Shown here: piece after piece, positions 19,301-34,486 of the stretch | Layout: each line of letters starts with the position of its first letter | How positions within the stretch are numbered: position 1 is the stretch's first letter | NCBI GenBank assembly: GCA_963575745.1 | Contig: CAUYUJ010000303.1 | Coordinates: 1 to 64,000, forward strand | Reading direction: 5' to 3' | Length of the DNA stretch: 64,000 bases | From: Prorocentrum cordatum | Lineage: Eukaryota | The notes under the pieces: generated by a model | What the model saw: only the letters and a program-made list of their open reading frames with translations | Told to the model about the DNA's origin: nothing | The model's database searches: none | Position numbers and translations under genes: made by a program

Positions 19301-20779
19301 TTGAGCTCGGGAAGCGGGCGGACTTAGATTTCGGAGCTGTTTGAGTGGGAACCTTGCAGCACCCCTTGCTCAATCTACATGTGTCCTGTGTCCAGTGAGT
19401 TACGAGGAGGTGGCTTGTAGGGGGTTGGGGGTCGCAGTTAGGCTCGGGGCGGGCGCGTCGCGTTGCTCTTGGCCCCGGGCGACGCGTGGCCTTCCCGGGA
19501 CAAGTCGGCGCCAGCTCCGCAATCATTCTCACGCCTGGGGGCCCGCAGACCTTGCGCCTCGGGCTTGAGCGGCTTGCTCCCGAGGCGCCGATTCAAACGT
19601 TGCTTGTCAATCATCGCACCTGCTTCCGCTCTCGAGCCCCAGTGGCCTTGGAGAGCCCCCGTGCGACGCGGGTTAGCAAATTCATTTTTGCATCCGCCGC
19701 CGCAAGACACCCGCGAACCACGCCTGACTAATTGGCTACTGCGCCCTCGACGCCCGGTTTCGAAAACGCGCTCGGGCCCGGGTCTGGGGAGCGGGTTCCC
19801 GCGCTAAGTTTCTTGGTCAGCGCGTTGCGCTCGCCGCGCGTTCGTCCCTCCATGTAGTCTCCGCCAAGCTCTGCCCGGGAGCTGCCATGTCTTGCTCGAC
19901 CCCCTTGGCACGAGACGCGCGCCGCGTCCTAGCCTGGCAGAGCGGCGCGATGGGCTATTGAACAGTGTAGTCCTAGAGCATAGGAGGGCCGCGCGGGTGC
20001 ACCCGCAACCTCCGCGACCAAATGTCTTATCGCATTCGCCCTCATCCTCTTTTGTTTCTCTTTCCCTCTCGCGTTCGGCGTTGGGGCGCGTGTGTCTGTG
20101 GGTCTTTGTGCGCGCGCGTTTGCGCGCGGTGCTCGCCTCGCGCTCGCCCCTGGTCGTTGCTTTTTTTCACCTTCAGCCCGGGGGCTGCCTGGCCAGCCTT
20201 TATTGTTCGGCCCGCTCAGCCCGAGACCCGTCGCGTCGCGTCCTGGCCCGGCAGAACGGTGCGACGATGATATGGTGTTGCCGATGATGATGGCTTGATG
20301 TTCGTAGTGGACACGACGGCGGTTATGCTGCTGACAATTAGGCGAATGCCGACGTTGAGTGCCCCGATGACGAGCTCGACGGCGACGGCGACCGACGGCG
20401 ACGACGACGGCGACCATGAGGACCGGGAAGAGGACGAGGAACAGGAGGGGGAGGTTCCGATGCCTCCAGGTTCTCCCACAGCGGTGCGACAACAATTTTC
20501 GCTTGCGGCCTGGGCCAGAGAGGTGCCCCGTTTCCGCGAGAAGGCAGCGTGGAGCCTCGAAGGTATTGACGTGCAGCGCGTGGCGAGGCTCGGCGGCGTA
20601 GATTCGAAATCAACGTTTGGAGCTCCCCCCCGCCAGCCCCGCGGGTTATCGCGCGCGGGCTGGGAGACTGAGGGAAGGAGAACGCCGACCGCAACCTCGA
20701 CAGTTGGCATTCTGGTCAGCACCGCGGCGAGCACCGCACGGGGCCCCCCAGTTTCGAGGCCGACGCAGCGCTCTTCTTT

Positions 20780-23537
20780 GCGAGGCTGAGCCGGGCGCTG
20801 GCCGTGGCCAGCCCGGGCTTGTGCCAGTGTGGCATTGCCAGCTTGTCGCTTTGGATGAGAAGGCAGGCGACGCTCTGGCGGCCGCGCGATATCGGCGACA
20901 TGCCGAGGCAGCCAACAACCGTGGCCAGCCCCTGCCCCCGCGCATCTCCGACATCGGCGCTCAGATCGTTTAGCTCGAGACTTGCCTGCGTAAGGAGCTC
21001 CAGAAGTTGGACATGCATCGCGAGTGAGTCACCGAGCAGCAGACCAGTTGCCGAGCCCTACAGGCGACTGGCCGACTGCGACGCCGAGTACAAAGCATCA
21101 GTGACCAGTTTGGTTGGGTTGCGGAGTCAAATTTGCTAAGATTGCCCCTGCCTGAGCCCTTATAGCAGGTGCCGTGGAAGGCCAGGGTGACGTCGTCCAA
21201 TTCGTCGACGTTGATTCGTTCTGCAACGTCGTGGAGCACGAGGCTCGCGAGGAAGACCGCGATAATATTCGACAACGGCGCGATCAGCTGCGCGGCCAGA
21301 TCCAATATATCGCCAAGGGCATCTTCAGTGGATCCATCAACCGCGCGGAGGCCATCAATGCTGAGCATGCGAACTACATCAAGCAGCTCAACAATACGCG
21401 CAAAGCGGGCGCCGACGGCGCTGCCGCAGCAGAGCCAGGCAGCGGCAAGGGCGGCAAGGAGACGGTCAAGCAGGTTTCTTCAGCCCCGACGGCCGCGCGT
21501 GCCAGCAGTGCTCCAGCGGGTCCTACTGCGGCGGCTGGGTATCTGGCGTGCGCGAGCGCACGCAGGCATGCTTCTCTGCAGCGAGCGGGGCCGCGGCGGC
21601 CGCGAGACAGACGGCCCAGGGCCCCCCCCCCCTGCCCCCCCCCCTGCCAAATGAGGGCTGTGCCGGGGGGGGGGGCCTCCAGTTGTCAGATTGCTGATCA
21701 TTCAATAACTTGCGCATCCAGAGGCCAGTGCTCTGCGCGCCCGCCAGACCCTCCTCCGCCGCGCTGGCTTTTGGCCGCGCGTGCCAGAGCGAGGCTGGCA
21801 GCGACTCTGCAGCGCCGCTTTGGAACATACCTCGCGGCACAGTTCCTAAGCCCGTCCGCCCAGGGCCCTGGCCGCGACTGACCCCCCGCCATGGCCCCGC
21901 TGGCCTCTGGCGCAGAGCCCTTGCGGGAAAGCTTCTGATGTGTCTGCGTGGAATCAACCTGCGAAGCAGTCCATTGTTTTCTTGAGTGCACCACCACCCC
22001 TAGGAGATGCCCACTGTTCGTCGAAGGAAGAAGCTCTGAACTGCACTGCGCGGGCGACGCTCCGTTGGTGGCCCCCGCATTGCACGTCGCACGTCATTTT
22101 GGTCCAGGAACATCCGTTGCGCCAAGGTGATGAGCTTGACTCGGTATCTTCCCGAGCGAAAGCACATGGTTGGCAGTTCTTACGCGCGTCTGCCCATGCC
22201 ACCCCCGCCGGGGGCACCTTGGCTGGAGTAGGCATCCTCGTTCGTGACTTCCCTGGGCTTCGCCCCTCGACTGGTGGCCATGCGCTCGCGCCTCATCGAG
22301 CTGTTGCTGGAGCATCCCCGGGGGGGCGCCGCCTCCCTCGCGCATTACCGCGCCACCCCCACGGGCATGGCGATTTTAACGCCAGGTTGTTGGCACATGT
22401 GGTTGCCGCTCTTCAACTTGAAGCTGGGCCGTACATCCTCGCGCTGACTTCGACCTCAAGGCTCGAGCCTGGCTTGCCCCAGGATTCAGAAGTCGCTTTG
22501 CCGCGTCACGGTCGCATCGCGTTTCCTGAATGGGCTTCAGTTTATATGGGGCGCCCGCATTCTCAACAATGTCGTGCTCTCTCGGCTGAATTATCTAGAG
22601 GATTGGTTGGTGTGAGTGTGGATCTGACTGCTCCGACGTCTCCGCATTCGCCAGTCCCGGCTGTGTTTCATCCTCTGCTGGCGCAGATGCATGAACTGAA
22701 ATTCCACCAGCCCCCAGCAATCCTTGTGGACCCCATCATGCGAGCTCCCCCTGGGCCCCCCCACTGGACTGGGGCGCATCAGCTGGGGCGGCGCCAGGCA
22801 GTTCAGAAGCTGTTGGAGTTGTGTCATCGCGCTTGGAATAACCTGCCTGGGCGTGAACTGGCGAATCCTCGGGGCGAAGCTCCCATGGCGCCGCAGTTGC
22901 ATTGGGCGCTGATCCTTGGTAAGGACAAGAAGCCGCCCTTCCGCCAGCCCAATCTCTGCGCCATCAAGTGGCCCACCACTGAGTGTAGTTTTATTTGCAG
23001 GCATGCCCCGATGAACACCGCGATGGGGTTTCTCCCATGTCACCTATCCTGTCTGAGCCTCTAGCGCGCTTGCGCGATGGGCTGCGGCATCATGAGCGTC
23101 GGTGCTATCAGGTTTTGCGATGTCCGTCGGATGCGCCACCTCTCCGCCCACCCCCGCGAGCTGCTTGAGCAGTTAGACGCGGCTCTTTCCGCCGCCGAAT
23201 CTCCCGCGCAGCAGGGGCCCCTGTCAGACTGAAAGCAATGGCTTCTGGACAAGGTCGAGCTGGTGGCTAAGCGTGCGTTCCGTTATCAAAGGCTTGACGC
23301 CATGGGCTCTGGCTGCACCCTTGCTGTTCAAATGCGTCGCGGGGCTAACCCGCGGGCCCCACTGGCCAGCGGGGCCCCGAAGTTGCCGATTCTCTGGGAG
23401 GCTCAACCGACCCCGCATCCCGTTCTTGAGCGCCCCCCTTTGCTGGCCCCGCCCTCCGCGCTCGCGGTGGGGGACCTTCGCGGGCGCAATCGGAAGCTTA
23501 GGGGCGCCTCGACATCGGCCGATGGTTTCTACGCGCG

Positions 23538-23568
<31 letters not shown>

Positions 23569-26045
23569 ATCTCGGACCCCGCCCTCGACATGTTGGTTAT
23601 CATCTTCGAGGCCGTGAGACGTTGCGCCCTCGTTCCCGCGCGGGCTCGTTTCGCCATTATTTCAGTCGTTGCAAAGCAGACTGGGGGGGGCGTCGGCCCC
23701 ACGGCCTCTCTTGCTCTATACTTCGGCAATGGGGGGGGGCACCGCGCGGGGGCCCGGCGAGGGGGGGGCGCGCGCGAGCATTATCTGCAGCAGGCAATGC
23801 GTCATCTTCGGCGGACGGCGCTCGGCGACAATCCGCTCGCACGGAGACGGCTGCGCGCGCAGGAGAGGTTTCAGGTTCCATCTTCTTCGGGGTTTGTTCA
23901 AGTACTCTGAAACCATTAATTTGGGCGTCTTGCTCAGCCGACGCGAGAAGCGCGGCGTCGACGTCGCGCTGGCCTGGCTTGCCCTTGCCACGCGCAGTAA
24001 ACCCAGATGCGCGGCGACGGGCAAGCTCGCGAAGGGGCCCTTTTCGCGCGCTCAGGAGGGTCGGTGCTGGATGCCCGTTTGCTCCCACAGCGATTGGTGT
24101 CTTCATCCTTTTGGCCCCTGGATGATGCGCGGTTCCCCTGCGCGGCTGCTCGGGGCGCATGCGCTCACGATTGTGGCTTTTCCACGATTGAACCCCCCTG
24201 CATGTGGCGCCCGACCTCGCCGCTGCCGCCCGAGAGTTGCACGGCGTCAACATCGAAGGTTTGGGTGGCAGCATCTCGCTAGACGCGACCAGCAAGAGAG
24301 TTGCTTCACCGCGCCGGCAGCAGGCCCGCGAGGGCCCCTAAGTGTTCCAAGGCGTTCGCGTTGAGGTCGTCCACACTGAAGGCCAATGCTCGTAGGCTGT
24401 GGGGGGCGCGATAGGCCTTCAGCAGGCGCGCCAGGAAGATTTTCGTCGCGGGGCCTCTGCCTGGCTATTCTGACTGACCTGAAGTCCACGGAGTATGTGA
24501 TCATGAGTGCGGCGTGCGTTAGGACGCTACATCAGGCCCAAGGCTGGCTCCCGCCCCGTCACCCCGGCCCTGGTCCTGAACAAATATCCCATCCACCACG
24601 GGCCCATCGCCCCCATCTTGAGGCATTCGAAGGAGCTCTGGGTGGCCCGCGTGAGGACATTTGTTTTCACGCTTTTCTAGAAGGAGCCAAGACCCGCTTG
24701 GGAGTCTGTTGTCTCGGGTCCTGGCCCTGGTTGTTGGAAGCAGGTGCTGGCGTCATCCCGGCCGCGAAGCTAAGCTTGAGGAGGATAGGTTGGTCCATCA
24801 TGCCGAGATTCGCTGTCATTGTTGACCGTTTCGGAGTGCAGTTGCCCTTCGCGCCCATCAGTCCAGCCCGCCAGCGACATCTGCATTGCGCTGTGTTGCA
24901 CGTGCGTGAGACAAGCTTTTGCCTGCCCTGCCGCAGTTGGTCCGAGTGTGCCATGATCAAATGCGCGCTCAGCTTCAGTCTCGCAAGTCCTAATGCATGC
25001 GAGAAGGGCTGTATAAAGTGCGTTGCGCGCGCGGCAGCGTGGTCCAAGACTCGTGGACGTGATGCCGCGTATCAACTGGTATCCGTGAGTTCTGTGGCAG
25101 CGCAGGTGACAGCATAGTTCATATATCGAAGCGTTGCACAGCAGTTGGGGGTCAGCGGCAAGAAATCTTCGGGAGAGACTTGGACCTCGCCCCGCCAGCT
25201 GATTTCAGCGAAGAAGATGAGTCCGCCCTCCTGCACACCAGACGCCCCTACGAGCACCCCGAAGACACCGCGCCCCCGCCCGCCCGCCAGCTCGACGGAC
25301 CAGGCTCGGGGATTCGTTTAGAGTGCGTTTATGACCCATGCAATGAGTCGATTCACTCGTTTGTGCAGTGTCTTCGTGAGCTCTCCAGGGACGGGTGGGC
25401 GGTCGTTTGCGTTTCGGAGTCTTGGGGCGTTGTCGGTTCCACCTCTGGCCCGCTGTTGGCCCGCGTTCCCCAGACCCCGCAGTCCGCTGAATTCGCTGCC
25501 TTATGTATTGCCGTGCTGCGCGGTGTTGCCGATTGTGACAGTCACTCTCACTGTTCGGATGTTGCGCGACAGGCTGCCGATCCCATCTCTGCTCGGCTCT
25601 CTTTTCGTCGACCGCGCGCTGGATTCATGCCCCAGGCTCTGGCGTCGCGGGCGGGCGCGGCGCTCGAGGTCGAAGGCCGCGTCGTTGGCAGCCCTGATTT
25701 CGCCCCAGCCCAGAAGGCGCACAAGCGTGGCAACGACCGCGCAGACAGGGCCGCGCGAGTGGAGGCCCTCCGCCACCCGCGCCCCGGCCCAAGCGAGGCC
25801 CAGCGCACCGTCAGGTTCGCGCGCATCTCGCGCGTTGTCTGCGGGCCGGCTGCCTGCCCGCAGCATGCCTCTTTGGCCCAGGTTGGACCTCAGCGAGGTC
25901 CCGTGGATGAAACGCCCCTCCGCACCGAAACCTTCTCTGCCCCCTCGCGACCGGCATTGGGAAGGTAGGTTTTGCATTTGCGTTGTTTGTTCTCGGTGCG
26001 CCCGCTGGTCGGACAAACCTGGTCTTGGGCGGTGCTGCGGTTCTC
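20780..26045 (+). mobile_element. Degenerate LINE (ORF1-like region; APE-RT-RNase H)
   Basis: Helical ORF1-like remnants at 20800-21600. APE: LNCTA...ILVQEH, AGVGILVRDF, SPHSPV (22030-22660). RT: LFKYSETINL, VGAGCPFA (23500-24250). RNase H: GWAVV, QSAEFAAL, GNDRADRAAR (25320-25770). C-terminal CICVVCSRC at ~25975. Confidence 0.8.
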
Positions 26046-26554
26046 TCAGGAGGAGGAGGAGGAGGAGGAGGAGGAGGAGGAGGAGGACATTCTGGACATT
26101 CTGGACAATGAGGGCTCGTGGACAGCCACAAGACAGAAATCACGCAACATTACAAGCACTATGCAGGCACACAGCTGGGATGACAACAAAAAGAAGCGAA
26201 CGAGGGACCCCATCACCTCATCAAGCCATCCACACCACGCCCTGCAGCACAGCAGAGCATGGCATGGGCACGATGTGCACGCACCTGATCCCCTCCCACA
26301 GTTTGAGGAGGAGGAGGAGCAACAGCAGCAGAAAAGACAAAGCCTCCAGCTGGGACGGCCTGACGCACCGCTCTTCGGTATCTCGCCTGCTCCCGGCGGC
26401 GGGAGATGGCCTGCCGCAGCTCGGAGGTGAGCTCCACTCGGACGGGAGAAGGCGGAGGAGGAGGAGGAGCGGGGTGGGGAACCCAGGGATCCCCAGACGT
26501 CTCCAGAGTCCTCAACATCCCTTCTTCAGCCCACGGATCCTCCTCCTCAGGCCA

Positions 26555-27060
26555 CAAAGAGGCCTCGGCGGACTGCCACGAACTGGGGGCTCTTTCCTCC
26601 CAGTGTGCCGTCTCTGGATGTTCCTTTAAAGCACACGCACCCACCTCGAGGCAGGTCAACAGCAGCAAGCGCTGGCTCAACAGGAGCTGGGTGCCGATAG
26701 AGAGCTGCATATGCTGACGACTGGTAACATCAGGACGACCCCACCGATGCGTAAGTGTACCGAGAGGAGCAGGGGGACGACAACGATCGGCAACTCGGAG
26801 CTCCTGCCAGCGAGCTGCAGACCAGGTTGCGCACGGAGGGTCTCCGATGAGGCCGATAGCACGTCCTGATCTCAGGAGCGAGTCCCATTTCTGAACAACA
26901 CCTGCCCGGGTTAGATCTCCATTCACGGCGTCACAGGCCACATCGCAAGAAATGATAATAACCGTCACAGGACCATGTACCAGCCCACGTTCTAACTCAT
27001 CCTGCACATCACCAGCACGCCTCGCTCGTGAAAACATGTGTAAATAAGGCAAGCACAACA
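26555..27060 (-). pseudogene. C5 DNA methyltransferase domain (motifs I-VI), truncated
   Basis: Motif I-like LHMFSRARRAGD (~27007-27043); motif II/III-like IISCDVACDAVNGDL; catalytic motif IV GLIGDPPCATWS (~26820-26853); motif VI-like LKEHP (~26614-26628). Confidence 0.8.
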
Positions 27061-27249
27061 TACTGCAGTGGCCGAGGGCATCTCTCGGCAGCTGGACCAT
27101 CATAGGCCAGAGGTTCAAGCATCTGTTCATCTGTCACCGGGGTTTCGTAGTTGGGTTCCACCTCCTGGACCTCGAACAGGGGTTCGGGGAAATCCTCGTA
27201 TTGGTGATACATCTACAGATAACCGGCCAGGCCTCCACATAGGGCAACT

Positions 27250-29450
27250 GAGTCTGCTGAGGACCATTGCGGAGACCAGGGGCCCGATGCGCAGGAAGCC
27301 AGGCCCCCCTCCTCATGGCCCCGTTCTTGCGGGCCTCCTTACGCTCCAAGGTTTCTAGGGCCCTCACCTCCTCCAGAGCTTCAGGAGCCTCGGGTTCCAA
27401 GAACGAGAGCGCAGAGATGTAACAGTTGGGGTTGCCATAAGCAATATGATCAATACTCAATTCCACAGAGCTGAATCGTACTAGAGAGATAGGGCAAGTT
27501 CTTCTGTGGATATATCGAGCGGCAACCGAACGCTGCTGATGGTGAAACCGTGCAATATGAGACTTCGCTGGTGCAAAATTTGGCGACGAGAACGGGCAAA
27601 AAGGACAGCGATGCACAACAGGTGCAGGTGCCTGCTTCAGAGCAAGATCTGGTGGCACACCAATACCAGCAACATGCTGGACAAACAAACACCTGCGTTG
27701 TTTGGCGAGCGTCATCTATGCGACTGGACCAGCGAATATGAACTTCAACCCCAGAAAGGACCAAATTGGCCCAGTGTTGTCCCCGACCCAGGATCTCTTT
27801 CTCCCATAACCCAAATTCAGAGTAAGGACTTGGAAGCTTCCGGAGCCTGGATACCCGAGTACGTAGCCACCGAAGATCTTCCAGGACCGTGTTGAACCAG
27901 GAGTGCTTGGGCTCCGCCGTGGCCCTGATAAGCCCAAAGAGAACCCCAGGAACTTGCCGATACAGACAACTTAGATAACGAAGACGGTGCCAACGCATCA
28001 TGCTATCCACTGCACACTTGCACGCAGCCGCCAGGATGGCAGAAGCGGGCTCGGCACCATCATCATAGGCAGGTTTTCCCAAGGCAGAACGATAAGTCTT
28101 AATGGTGCCATCACGATAGCGATTGAACTGCGCCCAAGTATGTTGCGGCCACGTCGCCGCATCGTATAGTCTGCCGGACATGACCAGCACAGCAGCGAGC
28201 TGCAGCTTGTGCTGCACAGAAAGCTGAGGACTCGGGAAGGCCACCTGCCGTAGAGCTTGCAACGACGACGATGTTGACGAAGCACGGTAGGCCAGCTCAG
28301 GGGCCATGTTCTGTTTATCCGAGACCATCCCACCTAGATGTTTATACGAATGCACAGCTTCCAGAGACAAGCCCTCGGGAAACGTGTAGGTGGGCGGAAT
28401 CGACACCTTCCCCTCCTCCTCGATCCCGATTTGCCTACGTGCCACCACAGACCCAGGGCCTCTGCAGGCAACCAGCAAGGCGGTCTTGGCGGGGCCCACA
28501 TTGATCTTGAGGCTCACGGGGGTGAAGGAGTCAGCCACTATAGCCGCCAGGACGCGCGCGCGTTGAATAATGGATCCAGCAGGGCCCCAAGTATTGAACA
28601 GGCAGTCGTCGCTATACTCGACGTCATTGGCAGAGACCTTAGTGTCGCACTGTGCCAGGGGATTCAGGGCCCTGACCGAGGGGGCCTCCTCCTGAAACGA
28701 TGAACAGGAAAAGCTGAGCAGCCAATGTGTTGCCAGGCCTGGCGCCAGTAGTCATGAGGGCAACGAGCCCCGAGCCTGGCGTGGTGGCCCGTGTCCCCGT
28801 CGAGGTCTCTGCCAGGACACGTCCAAGGTGCGCAGGAACCTCCAGTTCCTCTTGCAGCGGCCGCTTGGCCAACTCAGCAGCGAACGACTCCATGCAAGAG
28901 GGCGGTGGACCTGACGCATGCAGAAGGTGGGCAATGCGCCCATTCGTTATCTCCTCCTCTCCCTCGAAGCGAACGAGAATCTCACGAACAGCGCGATGAA
29001 ACGCAGCTACCAAGTCCACGAAGAGCGCCGACATCGATTCGGGACGAATGCGAGCATGCTCCTGCATAAGCCGAACCACGTGAACAGCAAAATCCGCCCC
29101 TCGACCCTTGATACCGCTTCGCTGCGACTCGGGTGCGAACGCGTGGAGAACGGGCTGGAGACGGCCAGCCACGAGAGCATGCGCGCGTGTGCCCACCTAG
29201 GGTCCTATGGCCACTGAACTGCTGGATGCACGCTGGTTGGGCTTGCCGCGGCTTTTGCAAATCAGCCATGCGTGAGCGTTTCCACTGTAGCGGTTCATGT
29301 ATACATGACATATATTGCATTACCAGTGGAAAGCATGTCCGGGCACATTGGGTAGAGCGCAATTTCAAGATAGCTCCTGAGACGCAGCCCAAGCCATTCG
29401 CACAAGAACTCGTGGTCTGCAGTAGCTGCTGCCCAAACATAGTCAGCGTC
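27250..29450 (-). pseudogene. LINE reverse transcriptase plus C2H2 zinc fingers
   Basis: LFVDLVAAFHRA, TTGARPGNTLAAQLF, VEYSDDCL (~28600-28625), SLKINVGPAKT, YKHLGG, then CPFCPFSSPNFAPAKSHIARFH (~27540-27610). Confidence 0.88.
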
Positions 29451-30459
29451 GGCAAACTCTTCGCCGCTGAGTAATCGATTTTTCCAAGCGGATAGCACGA
29501 CTCACCTAAGCTTTTAGGAGGCACGCGAAAGCCAAGCTTTTGTTCGGCAAAGTGCTCCAGCCACCTGTCACGACCATCCGGCGGCGCCAGAGCAGGCGCG
29601 CCACCTTTCAGGAGAATCTGAGTGGACTGGTTGGCAGGACGATTCTTTGAGGATTTGACTCGCAGCTCGCGTAGCTGGCCGAAGGTTTGCCGAAGCTCTT
29701 CCAACAGAAAAGAATTTGCAAATACATGCGAGATCTGCTTCATCTTGGTAGCCTTATCCAACTCGCACGACCAGCCGATCACGCGTGAAGTGAGACATGT
29801 CACATTACCCCCCATGGCCTTCATAAGACCATGCCAGCGCCGAAGAAGACCTAGGCACTGAGGTGCACGTGGAAGACGAAAGGCAGGATTGGCAGGCACA
29901 CGAGCAAGCTCCTGACTTCTTGCTACAAGGTTATCTCAGGCAGCAAGCCGAGAAAGCCGCTGACAACCTGGGGCCGGAACTCCTCGACGAGCCTCCAAAG
30001 CTGTCGTCGGCATCGTATCCCAGTCAAGCCATTGGATCCAGATCGGATCCGTAGCCTGCCCCGGACGCCCTCGTGCTCCTGGTAGTCCATAGAAGCCCAA
30101 GCTTGGAACGCCAGCTGAATGAGTGCTCTGGATGCCTTTCGGGTCCAGCTACGATACGTGGCCCTAAGGCGCTTCCCAAGTTCCCAGAGCCCCAGAGTCC
30201 TGTCACCCACCCAATCCTGTCGACTGGGATCTTCAGGCACCAGATGCTCGCGAGCAACGGCAACAAGATGCGCATCCACTCGAGCACGGTGCGCCGTGGC
30301 TGACTCGGACAAGTCAGACTCCTGAAAAGCGGCAACATGCTGATCAAATGCCGCGCCAACAGCAGGGCCACGCAGCCATTCAGCTTGCGCGCGCATTTGC
30401 GGCCAACGATGTTGAAACATATCTAATGACCCTGACGGCGCACACATTGAGACACAGGA

Positions 30460-31265
30460 AGGTCAGTGGTCCTCAACAGCGTTAGCCAGATCAACAGTAT
30501 GGCCCACCTGCACCTGCTGGACAGCGCAGCCAATCCTGGGGAACAAGCGCGTCGTCGAGACGTTTATTAGTCTTCCGTCCGTGCGCGCATGCGTATGATG
30601 CGTGCCCCCAAAAGGAGCAGGCATGAAGGTGGAGGAGGCCGCCGGCTGAACGCGATGGCAGAACGCGCGCAAACAGGTCCCCGAGAAGTTTTTCTCGACA
30701 GCCTCGATATCCCCAATCTGCGGGGATCACCTGCACCTCACCTCGGCATTCGCACCTTGCAGAAGCACAGGATGCACACCAGGGATAATAAAGCCACGTC
30801 TGATATTTTGAGTACCTAGCCACCACCTTTCCATTGCACTAGTATCCTCACGAGCAGAATGAGGGGCAGCGGCAGCGGCGAGCAGTGCGCGCAGCCCAGC
30901 AACATGGAAGCGAAGCACGAGCCGACTCGTGTCGGCATACAGCTTGGAGATGCGATGCCGACCTGGCTTAGTACCTTCACGGATAGCTCAGCGTTGACCC
31001 ACATGGCCACGCCATCAGAACCATTGTGAACACAATTGGTGTAGTACATCCTGAAATCACCTACTCGCCTGGGTCGAGCCGTCTGGGGCCTAGTTTCCAG
31101 AACCCCAAAGAAGGTATATTTGGCCAACATCGTGATGCGCCCAGGGGCTTTCGCACCAATCACCTTCAGGAGCCCAGCGGATCTTCTGGATTTGTGAGAT
31201 CATTTGAGCTCCTGCGAGCCCTGAAGGGGGAAGAACGCTGGCAACGCCAAACTTCAAAACATTCA
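30460..31265 (-). pseudogene. LINE APE endonuclease
   Basis: FFGVLETR, GSDGVAMWV, AAAPHS, LLQGANAEV and terminal EDH. Confidence 0.75.
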
Positions 31266-31479
31266 GGTCCTGGGAGGGCGCGACGCCTGCGACGCGCTGG
31301 ACTCCCGTAACATCCTGGACCCAGTACCCGTCCGAAGCCACTTCTGTGACCTTCACGGCGTTAGATTCTGTGATGGACGGCAGACCCACGGAGCCCCCCC
31401 TCGCAAATCCATGCCCATGCGAGAGCAGAAGAGTCAAACATAAGGGAGGCGAAAAGCATATACTCCATGCGCGACACCA

Positions 31480-31970
31480 GGCCCATGCCCGTCAGACGCG
31501 CGATCGTATCAGCAAGTTCGTTATACCCTTCTCCTTGATGACTGCGGGTGTTGTCCCCGTCCAAGGTGCACGACGACGACGAGAACTGGACCAGGGGCCT
31601 GAGAAATCTAAGACCCGAGTTGCCCACCTCGAAGCTCTGAGTTGCCATAAGAACCCCCAGAGTCCGCATCGAGTCTAGTCGAAGCACTACGGGACTTCTG
31701 CCCCAGTCAGCTTGCGCTATCCAGGCCGCTGCAATCATCTCAGCCGTGTCAGAGTGGAAGTTGGAGGGGAAGCGACCCATCACATCCTCGGGCCTTGAGA
31801 TCACACCCTCGGAAGGGGAAGAGACCCTCGCATCCGAGATCGCACCTTCGAGCGCGCGAGAACCGTCAACGTACTCATACACAATCACAACTGCTTAGGC
31901 AGGAACGAACGATATATGATATATTCGCATTCTAAGCACCACCAGTCCCATCGGTATAAATCAGAACACG
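31480..31970 (-). pseudogene. RNase H domain upstream of the endonuclease
   Basis: LIYTDG (~31947-31965), TAEMIAAAW, LRLDSM, RSHQG and YNELADTIA give a complete D-E-D-H-D set. Confidence 0.8.
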
Positions 31971-32199
31971 AGAGGGGTGGCAGGGGGAGGCATGGCACTT
32001 GCTGCTGCAACACCTCCGATGATGCTGGGTGGAGGTACTCAGGCAAAGCACTCTCGCGCAGCTGGTGAACTTGAACTGGCCAGGGCTGTCTGAGCTGAGA
32101 GACAGCAGCCTGCGCAGGTAGAAATTCAAAATCACGGGCCTGGCGACGCGGGCACTGGTCAGAGGCAGTCAGGTGGGGACCACGAGGATCATCAGGACC

Positions 32200-33700
32200 A
32201 CCAGGGTGAGCAGTGGCCACTGCATGTTTACCTTCACGTCGGCCTCGTCGGCAGCAGTTCCTCCACGACCGGCGCCGCGCGAGGCTGCCCTCGCCCGACT
32301 TGGCTCCCTGCGGCCGTCGAGGCGAGACTGACTTGGCGCGCGGCCGCCTGGGCGAGCGCTCGCGCGCGGGCTCGGCCGCGGGGCCAAGGCGCGCAGCTGG
32401 ATTGGCCGACCCAGGCGTCGCCGCCGTAGCAGCCGCTGCCGTCGCGGCCGTTCCCGCAGCCGCAGCCCCCGCGGCCGCGTCGGCTGCCCTCGCGGCGGGT
32501 GCCGCCTCCGCAGCCGCCGACGCAGCAGCTGCATCGACACGCGCGGCCCCAGACGTCGGCTCGCCCGCGAAGGAGACGCGGGACAATGGCACAGGGATGT
32601 TGGCTCCCCCGCCCGTCTGGATCTGCAGCTGGCGAATGATTCCAGCGACCATCATGGCCGAGTTCTGGGCCTGGTGCGCTGCGAGGGCTCCAAGGGCTGA
32701 GAGCGGCTGCGCCGCGCCCCCAGGAGGCCGTGGCACACCCACGGCCCCAGGCACCCCAGGCACACCAGCTGCCGACGGCTGGGCAGCATCACCGACTGGA
32801 CCATCTGCCGCACGTTTGGCAGTCTTCGTCTCGATCTGGATCAGGTTCTTGAGCTCCACGATCGTCTTCTTCATGTGCTTCACCTGCGTCTGCAAGTCGT
32901 CCAGCACGTCGTGCGCCTTCTGCAGACGCTTCTCGACTCTCTCCAGGGCCTCCTCCTGTTTGCCCATATGTGAGGCCCCTCGCACTGCACAGCATAGTCA
33001 ATGTCGTCGCGAACTCTAGGACGGCGTCGTCGTAGTTCTCGTTCGCGTCGAGCCTGAGGATAATCGTATTCAAGGCCTCGAGCCTTGCTGAGACTTGCTC
33101 CTTGTAAGCATCGGCTTCGGCGTCGGACGCCTGAGGACCAGGCGGCGCCTTCCAGCGAGGATGTTGACGAGCAATCTTCGGCGGAGCGAGACGGATATGC
33201 AGCAAGTCCTTCGCCGACTTGTATTCGTCGCCGCCCTTGAGGTCCTGCTCCAACTGCGAGGAGCTCGATGCCACCTCCTGGGGCTTGGCAGGGCTCAGGG
33301 TGCCACGAGACGGCGAGGCCTCGCGGTGAGCAAGAGCAGCTGTGCCCTTGTCCTTGCCCCTGCCCTTGCCACGGGCAGCAGCACCATCGCGAGGAGGCGG
33401 TGCACTGCCAATTCTGCGGGGATGGGAACGTCTCCACGGAGGTGGCTCGGGCTTCACATTACCACACTGGCGGCAATCCACGCGCTCGTGCCAGTCCTAG
33501 CAGTAGCAGACACCACAGGACCATGGGGATCCTGGCGGCTTGGTCATCGCACCTGGCAGAACGAGACCACGAGGTTGTCGACTGTGATGCCATTGCAGCA
33601 ACTTCTTAGCCGCCGCAAGGCGCAGTAGCACACGGGCGTCGGCGCGACTCTTCTATGGCCCTCCGGTGCCACGCGGGCTCTCCACCCCTCCCTGCGTGGC
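32200..33700 (-). pseudogene. LINE ORF1 (RanBP2-like zinc finger plus coiled coil)
   Basis: PWSCGVCYC*DWHERVDCRQCG (~33462-33527); LERVEKRLQKAHDVLDDLQTQVKHMKKTIVELKNL. Confidence 0.65.
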
Positions 33701-33829
33701 GATGGGGTCAGCGCGGCCGAGAGGCAGCGCTATGGCGGGCTGCGGTCAGACGGCGCGTCCAGCAGCTGTCCCGAAAGTGAGGGGCCGCTACCTGGTAGCA
33801 CCCAGGCCCCTCTAGCCGGGACGGCGGCT

Positions 33830-34486
33830 GGAGGAGGAGGAGGAGGAGGAGGAGGAGGAGGAGGAGGAGGGAGGAGGCAAGAGGAGCAACACGAGGAAAA
33901 CGAGGACGAATTTGAGGAGGACGAGGATTAAGAGAGTGAGGAGGAGGACAAAAGGGAGGGGAAGGAGGAGGACGAGAAGGAGGAGGAGGAGGAGGAAGAA
34001 GAGGACGAGGGGGGGATCAAAACGAGAAGGGGGGAGGAGGAGGAGGAGGAGGAGGAGGAGGAGGAGGAGGAGGAGGAGGAGGAGGAGGAGGAGGAGGAAG
34101 AGGAAGAGGAAGAGGGGGAGGATGAAAACGAGGAGGAGGAGGAGGAGGAGGAGGAGGAGGAGGAGGAGGAGGGGGAGGGGGAGGGGGATGACGAGGACGA
34201 GGACGAGGAGGAGGATGAGGAGGAGGAGGAACATGACGAGGATGAGGACGAAGGATATGGCCGTGAACGAGAGGACGAGGAAGAGGAGGGGGAACATGAC
34301 TAGGACGAGGACGAAGGATATGGACGAGAACGAGAGGACGAAGAGGAAGAGGAGGATGAGGAGGAGGAGGAGGATAAACAGGAGGAAGAGGAGGAAGAGG
34401 ATAAGGACGAGGAGGTCGACGAGAATGATGACGATGATGATGACGAAGACGAGGACGAGGAAGACGAGGAGGAGGACGAGGATGAG
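33830..34486. repeat. (GAG/GAC)n compound microsatellite
   Basis: Directly visible. Confidence 0.97.

Follow-up and report, generated by a model that had tools for sequence, protein, structure and literature searches.

A dead LINE copy in Prorocentrum cordatum carrying the front part of a conserved C-terminal domain with a predicted, divergent C5-methyltransferase fold

Retrotransposons with a DNA methyltransferase (DNMT) of their own are, to our knowledge, a recent and small category, in which every known case was found by means of the Pfam DNMT model. According to the accessible part of the report on Symbiodinium, the long interspersed nuclear element (LINE) SymbioLINE-Dnmt carries a DNMT detectable with PF00145 in open reading frame 1 (ORF1), upstream of the ORF for the reverse transcriptase (RT), and SymbioDIRS-Dnmt3 is described there too (PMC5890265). 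The known transposon-borne DNMTs, as given in the available portion of a second source, comprise these two together with the streptophyte Gypsy-DNMT3 elements and the EpiLTRs of Cymbomonas and Euglena (10.64898/2026.05.21.726589). In the accessible part of a 2025 survey of eukaryotic DNMTs, the SymbioLINEs stand among the 'orphan' DNMT clades. Here we describe a LINE remnant on the minus strand of a 64,000-nucleotide stretch of Prorocentrum cordatum DNA (GenBank assembly GCA_963575745.1, contig CAUYUJ010000303.1, positions 1 to 64,000; hereafter the window), in which the RT is followed by part of a conserved domain, referred to as domain X. With moderate confidence we regard window positions 26561-27212 (-) as the dead front of X, a conserved C-terminal LINE domain that has a divergent C5 cytosine methyltransferase fold and probably modifies cytosine.

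The minus-strand ORF at 26213-27133 (306 residues) contains LHMFSRARRAGD, IISCDVACDAVNGDLTR, GLIGDPPCATWS and LKEHPE in this sequence. The same strand carries, upstream of it, a C2H2-bearing ORF (27134-27715) and several RT-like ORFs (27450-29935). A sequence-only reading of this DNA had recognised C5-methyltransferase-like motifs, in order and on one strand, after the RT and the C2H2 fingers, and this arrangement is indeed present. Window positions 26561-27046 (-), which are residues 30-191 of the ORF, match a hidden Markov model (HMM) of the domain X family at E 1.6e-48 over model positions 5-163 of 249, well outside what chance would give. The model was built from 194 relatives, none of them from the window; judged by this alignment, the matching segment is the front ~60% of domain X.

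A word-indexed search returned four proteins, namely the window's own product and three relatives at 50-75% identity. EukProt labels all three Pyramimonas sp., a green alga related to Cymbomonas, and none is from a dinoflagellate, so that the dinoflagellate affinity previously supposed for the lineage finds no counterpart among them. Together with one Atlas cluster labelled Eukaryota/Haptophyta, these three proteins are the whole basis for the taxonomic range. Their motifs are cleaner than those of the window copy (LHLFSGARRPGD, GLIGGPPCETWSAARW). A HMMER search of 1.84 billion representative proteins with a small profile yielded 954 representatives at E<=1e-3 and 138 at <=1e-10, the 954 being clusters at 50% identity. 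The profile from alignment A1 that was used in the representative scan and in the PDB search was made without the GRAIGLIGGPPC columns, and the scan recovered the family nonetheless. Metagenome contigs with GPPCETWS provided 329 stretches, 298 of which encode relatives, and 80 of these loci were kept. The 80 loci do not stand for 80 independent taxa, since 58 of them carry one contig-name prefix.

Domain X is a standard component of the element, and its linkage to the RT, as the sequence-only reading had proposed, is firmly supported. Among the 150 best representatives, 37 proteins are longer than 1,200 residues (the long relatives). X lies at the extreme C-terminus of all 37, is complete in 36 and is mostly found 36-60 residues from the protein end. 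An RT homologous to that of the window is present in 32 of the 37, in each case N-terminal of X (32/32). The metagenome loci give the same picture: X lies within an ORF in 80/80 and is complete in 72, of which 65 have a stop codon 30-60 residues after X (median 40). These ORFs reach at least 1,200 residues in 34 loci, at least 2,000 in 22 and at least 2,800 in 14. Chimeric assembly of the long ORFs is unlikely, given the 32 proteins and the 34 loci with ORFs of at least 1,200 residues. The window is colinear with P0136, P0134 and P0097, among other long relatives, from ~30942 down to 26576 and on the minus strand only, and its RT ORFs match 55 and 26 of the 80 metagenome loci.

A Pfam scan of 20 long proteins detected RVT_1 in 7, RNase_H in 6, Exo_endo_phos in 2 and nothing in 8, with RVT_1 at 32.7 bits in P0099 and Exo_endo_phos at 37.5 bits in P0079. 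When six further proteins were scanned, RNase_H reached 48.4 bits in P0136, and sub-threshold C2H2 matches were located 150-200 residues before X in five of six relatives. In the metagenome locus L018 a single ORF of 2,125 residues carries RNase_H (27.2 bits), RVT_1 (52.5 bits), C2H2 and then X at residues 1822-2077, and Exo_endo_phos is above its cut-off in L039 (28.6 bits) and L068 (27.0 bits). In L012, too, X comes after the RT within one ORF. The order in the family is RNase H, apurinic/apyrimidinic (AP) endonuclease, RT, C2H2 and X, within a single giant ORF that stops about 40 residues past X. An RT together with an EEP endonuclease in one ORF, by which AP-endonuclease-type LINEs are recognised, occurs in the relatives; the homologous regions of the window are broken and below Pfam thresholds. 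The X-bearing group is apparently a large, undescribed clade of AP-endonuclease-type LINEs in aquatic microbes. ORFs of 2,953-2,964 residues that reach the 5' edge of the locus without being closed were seen in L029, L032, L033, L038, L039, L047, L057, L059, L071, L081 and L090; that of L029 has more than 1,200 residues without a Pfam match upstream of the RNase H and endonuclease, which makes these unusually large LINEs with an uncharacterised N-terminal half.

The ratio of non-synonymous to synonymous substitution rates (dN/dS) of domain X was calculated between metagenome loci, where most pairs are saturated at synonymous sites and 218 of 2,556 were computable. It is 0.05-0.08 in all eight pairs with dS 0.05-1.5, although these pairs are few, overlap and all involve one assembly prefix, so that they amount to about five independent comparisons. 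Values in this range indicate strong purifying selection, and X is therefore functional for the elements that carry it.

A model of full-length X was obtained with AlphaFold2 for the relative P0076, using a 51-sequence alignment (predicted local distance difference test score, pLDDT, 86.8; predicted TM-score, pTM, 0.87). When the model was compared with the PDB by Foldseek, C5 methyltransferases occupied 39 of the 40 rows listed (best E 2.4e-4) and included DNMT3A/B/C, M.HaeIII, Dnmt2 (6fdf), DNMT1 and a prophage enzyme. VIA-align, run against 48,161 representative chains, placed C5 methyltransferases at all of ranks 1-16 with Z 7.9-10.2. The highest were DNMT3A (10.2; root-mean-square deviation 4.0 over 193 aligned residues), DNMT3B (10.0), M.HhaI (9.8) and M.MpeI (9.5); the Dnmt2-type enzymes EhMeth and S. 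pombe Dnmt2 reached 9.0 and 8.6, respectively, and a C5-carboxymethyltransferase that uses carboxy-S-adenosylmethionine (8yf3) reached 8.7. Generic short-chain dehydrogenases (SDRs) appear from Z 7.8, and other methyltransferases score at most 6.7 (FtsJ 6.6, RlmJ 6.7). Among the viral models of BFVD, Foldseek gave 15 matches at E<=1e-3, the best at 3.1e-8, of which ten are named cytosine or DNA methylases and one is a methyltransferase dependent on S-adenosylmethionine (SAM). Evidence of moderate strength from the predicted structure thus assigns X the C5-methyltransferase fold. The top BFVD matches are short cytosine methylases of ~210 residues, one of them from Tetraselmis virus 1, which infects a green alga, and offer a lead towards a possible viral origin of X. 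A restriction-like endonuclease, as described for Dualen LINEs in the accessible part of PMC5029228, was considered as another identity for X and rejected, with no nuclease among the structural matches.

Weak sequence matches fall on the same enzymes. When 51 family members were scanned at E<=1, the C5-methyltransferase models were the only Pfam and NCBIfam models to match more than one member: PF00145 was sub-threshold in 3 (best E 0.06) and TIGR00675 in 4 (best E 0.031). Of the PHROGs, phrog_2882 matched 13 of the 51, three other families named 'DNA methyltransferase' matched 3 each, and one unnamed family matched 3. The family was also compared by hhalign with E. coli Dcm, with 120 near-identical Dcm orthologues, and with eight phage C5 methyltransferases plus Dcm (alignment A4, the nine true enzymes; locus L010, with a cut gene, was left out). 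In all comparisons GPPCETWS pairs with a motif IV of the type G-F-P-C-Q-x-F-S, at E 0.0015-0.024; where it falls on GFPCQAFS, the values are 0.0015-0.0026.

The conserved residues of X can be set against those of the nine true enzymes, in which invariant columns are found for motif I (G-x-G-G), the motif II Glu, motif IV (P-C), motif VI (E-N-V) and motif VIII (R-x-R), among others. In the X family (51 and 53 sequences) at least 90% conservation is found for each of the G, the RR and the D of F-S-G-x-R-R-x-x-D, for S-x-D, for P-P-C-E and for E-H-P, and the rear half has near-invariant Q, G, K-P-T, G, T, K and Y-P. P-P-C, which is also present in the window, is placed by hhalign on the invariant P-C of motif IV. 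Acidic residues are kept after strand 2 and in G-D-L, at the positions of motifs II and III. In E-H-P, the E is found in 49 of 51 sequences and the H in 50 of 50; the motif stands in the model at the end of the strand that follows the long helix, where E-N-V is expected, with the Asn and the Val not kept. A forced long hhalign alignment additionally sets F-S-G on F-A-G and the K-x-Y-P helix on the G-N-x-V helix.

A number of results weigh against the assignment of X to the C5 methyltransferases. On the structural side, the TM-scores of the Foldseek matches in the PDB are low (0.25-0.39), and the top VIA Z of 10.2 exceeds generic Rossmann folds by just ~2 units, a margin that is real and modest. 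The window remnant modelled by itself (168 residues, pLDDT 89.6) gave nothing in Foldseek at E<=1e-3 and generic alpha/beta folds only, and in VIA-align it gave SDRs at Z<=8.3, with no C5 methyltransferase among the top 50; we read the front half of X alone as a generic Rossmann half that is not diagnostic. On the sequence side, the PF00145 check proposed with the sequence-only reading came out empty, with no match of the window ORF at E<=1; PF00145 is likewise absent from the 20 long proteins at E<=0.001 and from eight long ORFs of the metagenome loci at E<=0.01, no score attained the curated cut-off of PF00145 or TIGR00675, and no sequence method was significant for C5 methyltransferases. 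The hhalign probability is only 2-17%, over 21-36 columns around motif IV, and was no higher (16.9%) with the deeper 194-sequence family alignment. In the PDB, hmmsearch with the family profile gave 0 matches at E<=10, and sequence searches with alignments A1 and A2 gave nothing relevant. The forced hhalign alignment does not place EHP on ENV. Since the PF00145 profile test fails, the methyltransferase call rests on the predicted structure and on motif placement.

The low profile probabilities, together with a front half that fits SDRs and RecA/KaiC-like folds equally well and with the fact that unrelated models often reach a best VIA Z of 7-8, could mean that the likeness is superficial, X being some other Rossmann-like nucleotide-binding domain in which PPC and EHP are mere mimics of motifs IV and VI. 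We hold this to be quite improbable. C5 methyltransferases come first in three structure libraries and with two aligners (BFVD 3.1e-8), whereas other methyltransferase classes such as FtsJ and RlmJ are clearly lower; C5-methyltransferase models are also the only recurrent weak matches in three HMM libraries, and hhalign sets PPC on PC.

The departures from the canonical motifs bear on activity as well as on kinship. The putative cofactor loop of X is F-S-G-x-R-R-x-G-D with a near-invariant Arg-Arg, as opposed to the three invariant glycines of the true enzymes, and R-x-R of motif VIII (R155 and R157 in the true enzymes) is absent, the corresponding X strand having K-P-T instead (K in 35/42, P in 41/43, T in 38/41 sequences). 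X could therefore be a pseudoenzyme with the C5-methyltransferase fold, or a base-flipping DNA- or RNA-binding module for recognition of the target or template, in which the Cys has a structural, covalent-anchoring or other role that involves no methyl transfer. The change of Gly-Gly to Arg-Arg in motif I and the missing R-x-R, both at positions invariant in the nine true enzymes, would agree with this, as would the failure of any methyltransferase HMM to reach its threshold, and strong purifying selection fits any conserved function. However, the residues that pseudoenzymes usually lose are here the best conserved, namely P-P-C-E and E-H-P at 90% or more and the acids of motifs II and III, and we consider a pseudoenzyme unlikely. 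We conclude that X represents a highly divergent version of the C5-methyltransferase fold in which the cofactor pocket has been remodelled. What had been called a C5 methyltransferase domain from the motifs thus stands as regards the predicted fold and the conserved Pro-Cys, and falls short in the glycine loop of motif I, in R-x-R and in profile significance. With the loop non-canonical and R-x-R absent, activity cannot be read from the sequence, and we put the odds that intact family members are active methyltransferases at roughly even. In the short variable region that follows K-P-T and precedes the final helix (alignment A2; residues 205-245 of P0076, modelled less confidently with pLDDT ~75), G-R-C-x-H recurs together with another His (18 of 22 rows in one column); this region, downstream of D-Q-C, may form a small zinc site.

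If X of an intact element is a cytosine-modifying enzyme, the ORF2 protein would carry it to the integration site, where X would flip out a cytosine and attack it through its Cys. The most probable outcome would be methylation of the new cDNA copy or of the target DNA, as proposed for the retrotransposon DNMTs of Symbiodinium. CpG depletion, as a footprint of such self-methylation, was not seen in the element, where the observed/expected ratio of 0.82 is within the window range of 0.70-1.13; this, too, speaks against methylation. LINE proteins bind their own RNA in cis, and the substrate might instead be RNA or a DNA/RNA hybrid, with X as a Dnmt2-like cytosine-5 methyltransferase that marks the LINE RNA template or a tRNA. 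Such an enzyme would suit the position of the LINE protein on its own RNA, the shortness of the variable region that separates the K-P-T strand from the final helix, and the presence of Dnmt2-type proteins among the structural matches (EhMeth, S. pombe Dnmt2, 6fdf). The DNA enzymes DNMT3A/B, M.HhaI and M.MpeI nevertheless score slightly higher, within 1-1.5 Z units, and an RNA substrate has only a slight probability in our estimate. It is also distinctly unlikely, in our judgement, that X is an active DNA-cytosine-modifying enzyme that Pfam surveys have missed and in which, owing to the Arg-Arg pocket, the cofactor and product are perhaps other than SAM and 5-methylcytosine. If that were true, a very large LINE clade of marine and freshwater protists would label its own insertions with an epigenetic mark or one of unusual chemistry, and genomes scored as lacking a given DNMT could hold hundreds of active copies. 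The favoured reading of X remains that of a conserved C-terminal LINE domain with a divergent C5-methyltransferase fold that probably modifies cytosine.

The window copy itself cannot work, and its chance of methyltransferase activity is nil, in agreement with the inactivity assumed by the sequence-only reading. The N-terminal lead-in of X is in a different frame from the X remnant according to tblastn, alignment A1, the DNA and the frame map, which puts a frameshift immediately ahead of motif I, at about 27040-27046. Three of 19 near-invariant X sites are altered, with Arg even at the first glycine of motif I (G to R in FSG), Ala for Glu after PPC and Gly for Arg in P-L-R. The rear half, which includes the K-P-T part, is absent: a rear-half HMM found nothing convincing in the whole window, its best match (E 0.013) falling at an unrelated position. 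The element as a whole is split across frames: frame 0 holds the RNase H-like region and X, frame 1 the endonuclease, which contains stops, and frame 2 the X lead-in, and the RT is spread over all three. The frameshift, the substitutions, the missing rear half and the division of RT and endonuclease between frames together make this a dead copy.

Family homology of X ends at ~26560, and the tblastn matches of the 37 long relatives reach 26504 at most; the 3' end of the element has been lost. The domain had earlier been described as cut off after APSSW, which agrees with this end, whereas its start lies further upstream than supposed, at 27212 and in another frame. An unrelated repeat, to which the cut-off had been attributed, was not recovered: the DNA of 24000-27300 has no second copy within the window, and the ORFs of 20000-34000 have no match in the 80 related loci except for the element's own X and RT ORFs. 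The closest relatives, P0001 and P0005, likewise stop within ~12 residues after A-P-[SG]-S-W, where the window homology ends. Instead of a deletion confined to this copy, the shared end could mark a subfamily that lacks the rear part of X, an intron or a site of recoding. At the start of the X lead-in an ATG directly follows a TAG (27210-27215, -), the frame overlaps the end of the C2H2 ORF by ~78 nucleotides, and the relative P0002 begins at the same Met. Within the window subfamily, X could have an overlapping ORF of its own or be translated through a frameshift, while it is fused to the RT ORF in distant relatives. The features of the remnant are collected in Table 1.

Table 1. Coordinates of the element remnant in the window and the evidence for each part
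Feature	Position	Strand	Evidence
Domain X remnant	26561..27046	-	Motif I-like FSR..RR..D, S-x-D, GDL, PPC, EHP; family HMM
N-terminal lead-in of domain X, other reading frame	27040..27212	-	tblastn of P0002/P0004 matches 27212-27024; alignment A1
Continued X open frame without family homology; proline-rich, low complexity	26213..26560	-	Rear-half HMM, tblastn
Two C2H2-like fingers; one stop codon from the X frame	27137..27715	-	Sequence; sub-threshold C2H2 Pfam matches of relatives
Reverse transcriptase region in three frames, stops inside some matches	27621..29845	-	tblastn, 32/37 long X-bearing proteins
Probable AP endonuclease (EEP), degraded, 2 stops	30316..30942	-	2/37 long relatives (P0136, P0046); label from position
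Possible RNase H on the 5' side of the element, weak	31406..31693	-	1/37 long relatives (P0070)

Pfam adds little to the parts upstream of X. The ORFs of the EEP and RNase H regions of the window have no Pfam match, the C2H2 segment has none at E<=0.5, and an RT ORF matches RVT_1 at E 0.33 only. This silence means little, since 36 other large ORFs of the window are likewise without a Pfam match (E<=0.01). The relative P0046, one of the two behind the endonuclease label, has a weak Exo_endo_phos match upstream of its own RT (E 0.034). Just upstream of the element, at 31888-32997 (-), an open frame of 370 residues has a coiled-coil-like start, an Ala/Pro-rich tail and no Pfam match; it could be ORF1 or be unrelated.

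On the other side of the remnant, the plus-strand ORFs at 21850-23061 and 25063-25965 appear by eye to be EEP endonuclease-like and RNase H-like, and seemingly belong to another, opposite-facing retroelement running towards the broken 3' end of the X element. Neither has a Pfam match or a match to the X-bearing family. An (AGG)13 tract is situated at 26048-26087, just past the truncated end of the element, and a (GGA)n array of ~219 copies at 33830-34486.

The larger LINE group, with 954 clusters, intact ORFs exceeding 2,900 residues and a dN/dS of ~0.06, ends in a domain predicted to have a methyltransferase fold that PF00145 misses. If X is active, protist retrotransposons would mark themselves far more often than has been assumed, and counts of DNMTs that rely on PF00145 would be too low. 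If it is inactive, the group would represent a conserved use of a base-flipping fold for another step of retrotransposition.

Among known systems, the best structural matches of X are the canonical C5 methyltransferases (M.HhaI, DNMT3A/B, Dcm and small viral enzymes), with which it shares the order of motifs on strands and loops, the Pro-Cys after strand 4 and the Glu after the long helix. Its short variable region is like that of DNMT3 and of the ~210-residue viral enzymes. It differs from the canonical enzymes in having G-x-R-R, E-H-P and K-P-T in place of G-x-G-G, E-N-V and R-x-R, and an extra segment of ~25 residues, G-P-R-P-L-R...W-G, between motif IV and the long helix. SymbioLINE-Dnmt, as far as the accessible part of its description goes, is alike in being a LINE with a cytosine-methyltransferase-fold domain of an orphan lineage, under purifying selection and with a proposed methylation of its own new copy (PMC5890265). 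A kinship to the Symbiodinium LINE type, which the sequence-only reading had raised next to an independent lineage, is not borne out by the architecture: SymbioLINE-Dnmt has its DNMT in ORF1, ahead of the RT ORF and visible to PF00145, whereas X closes the RT ORF as its final domain and escapes PF00145; X also has G-x-R-R at motif I and lacks R-x-R. The elements with a DNMT3-type or DNMT4-sister enzyme in the pol ORF, in the part of the source available, resemble the X-bearing LINEs in the fusion of a methyltransferase domain into the polymerase ORF, which in Cymbomonas is appended at the 3' end of pol. In contrast, these are long terminal repeat or DIRS elements with a canonical DNMT that can be placed in a tree, whereas X is in a non-LTR element and too divergent for placement by sequence. 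No LINE with a C-terminal methyltransferase-like domain was found in the literature, a search whose scope excluded Repbase and supplements. Retrotransposon-borne domains of the methyltransferase fold are thus known; new is the position of such a domain at the end of the RT ORF of a LINE.

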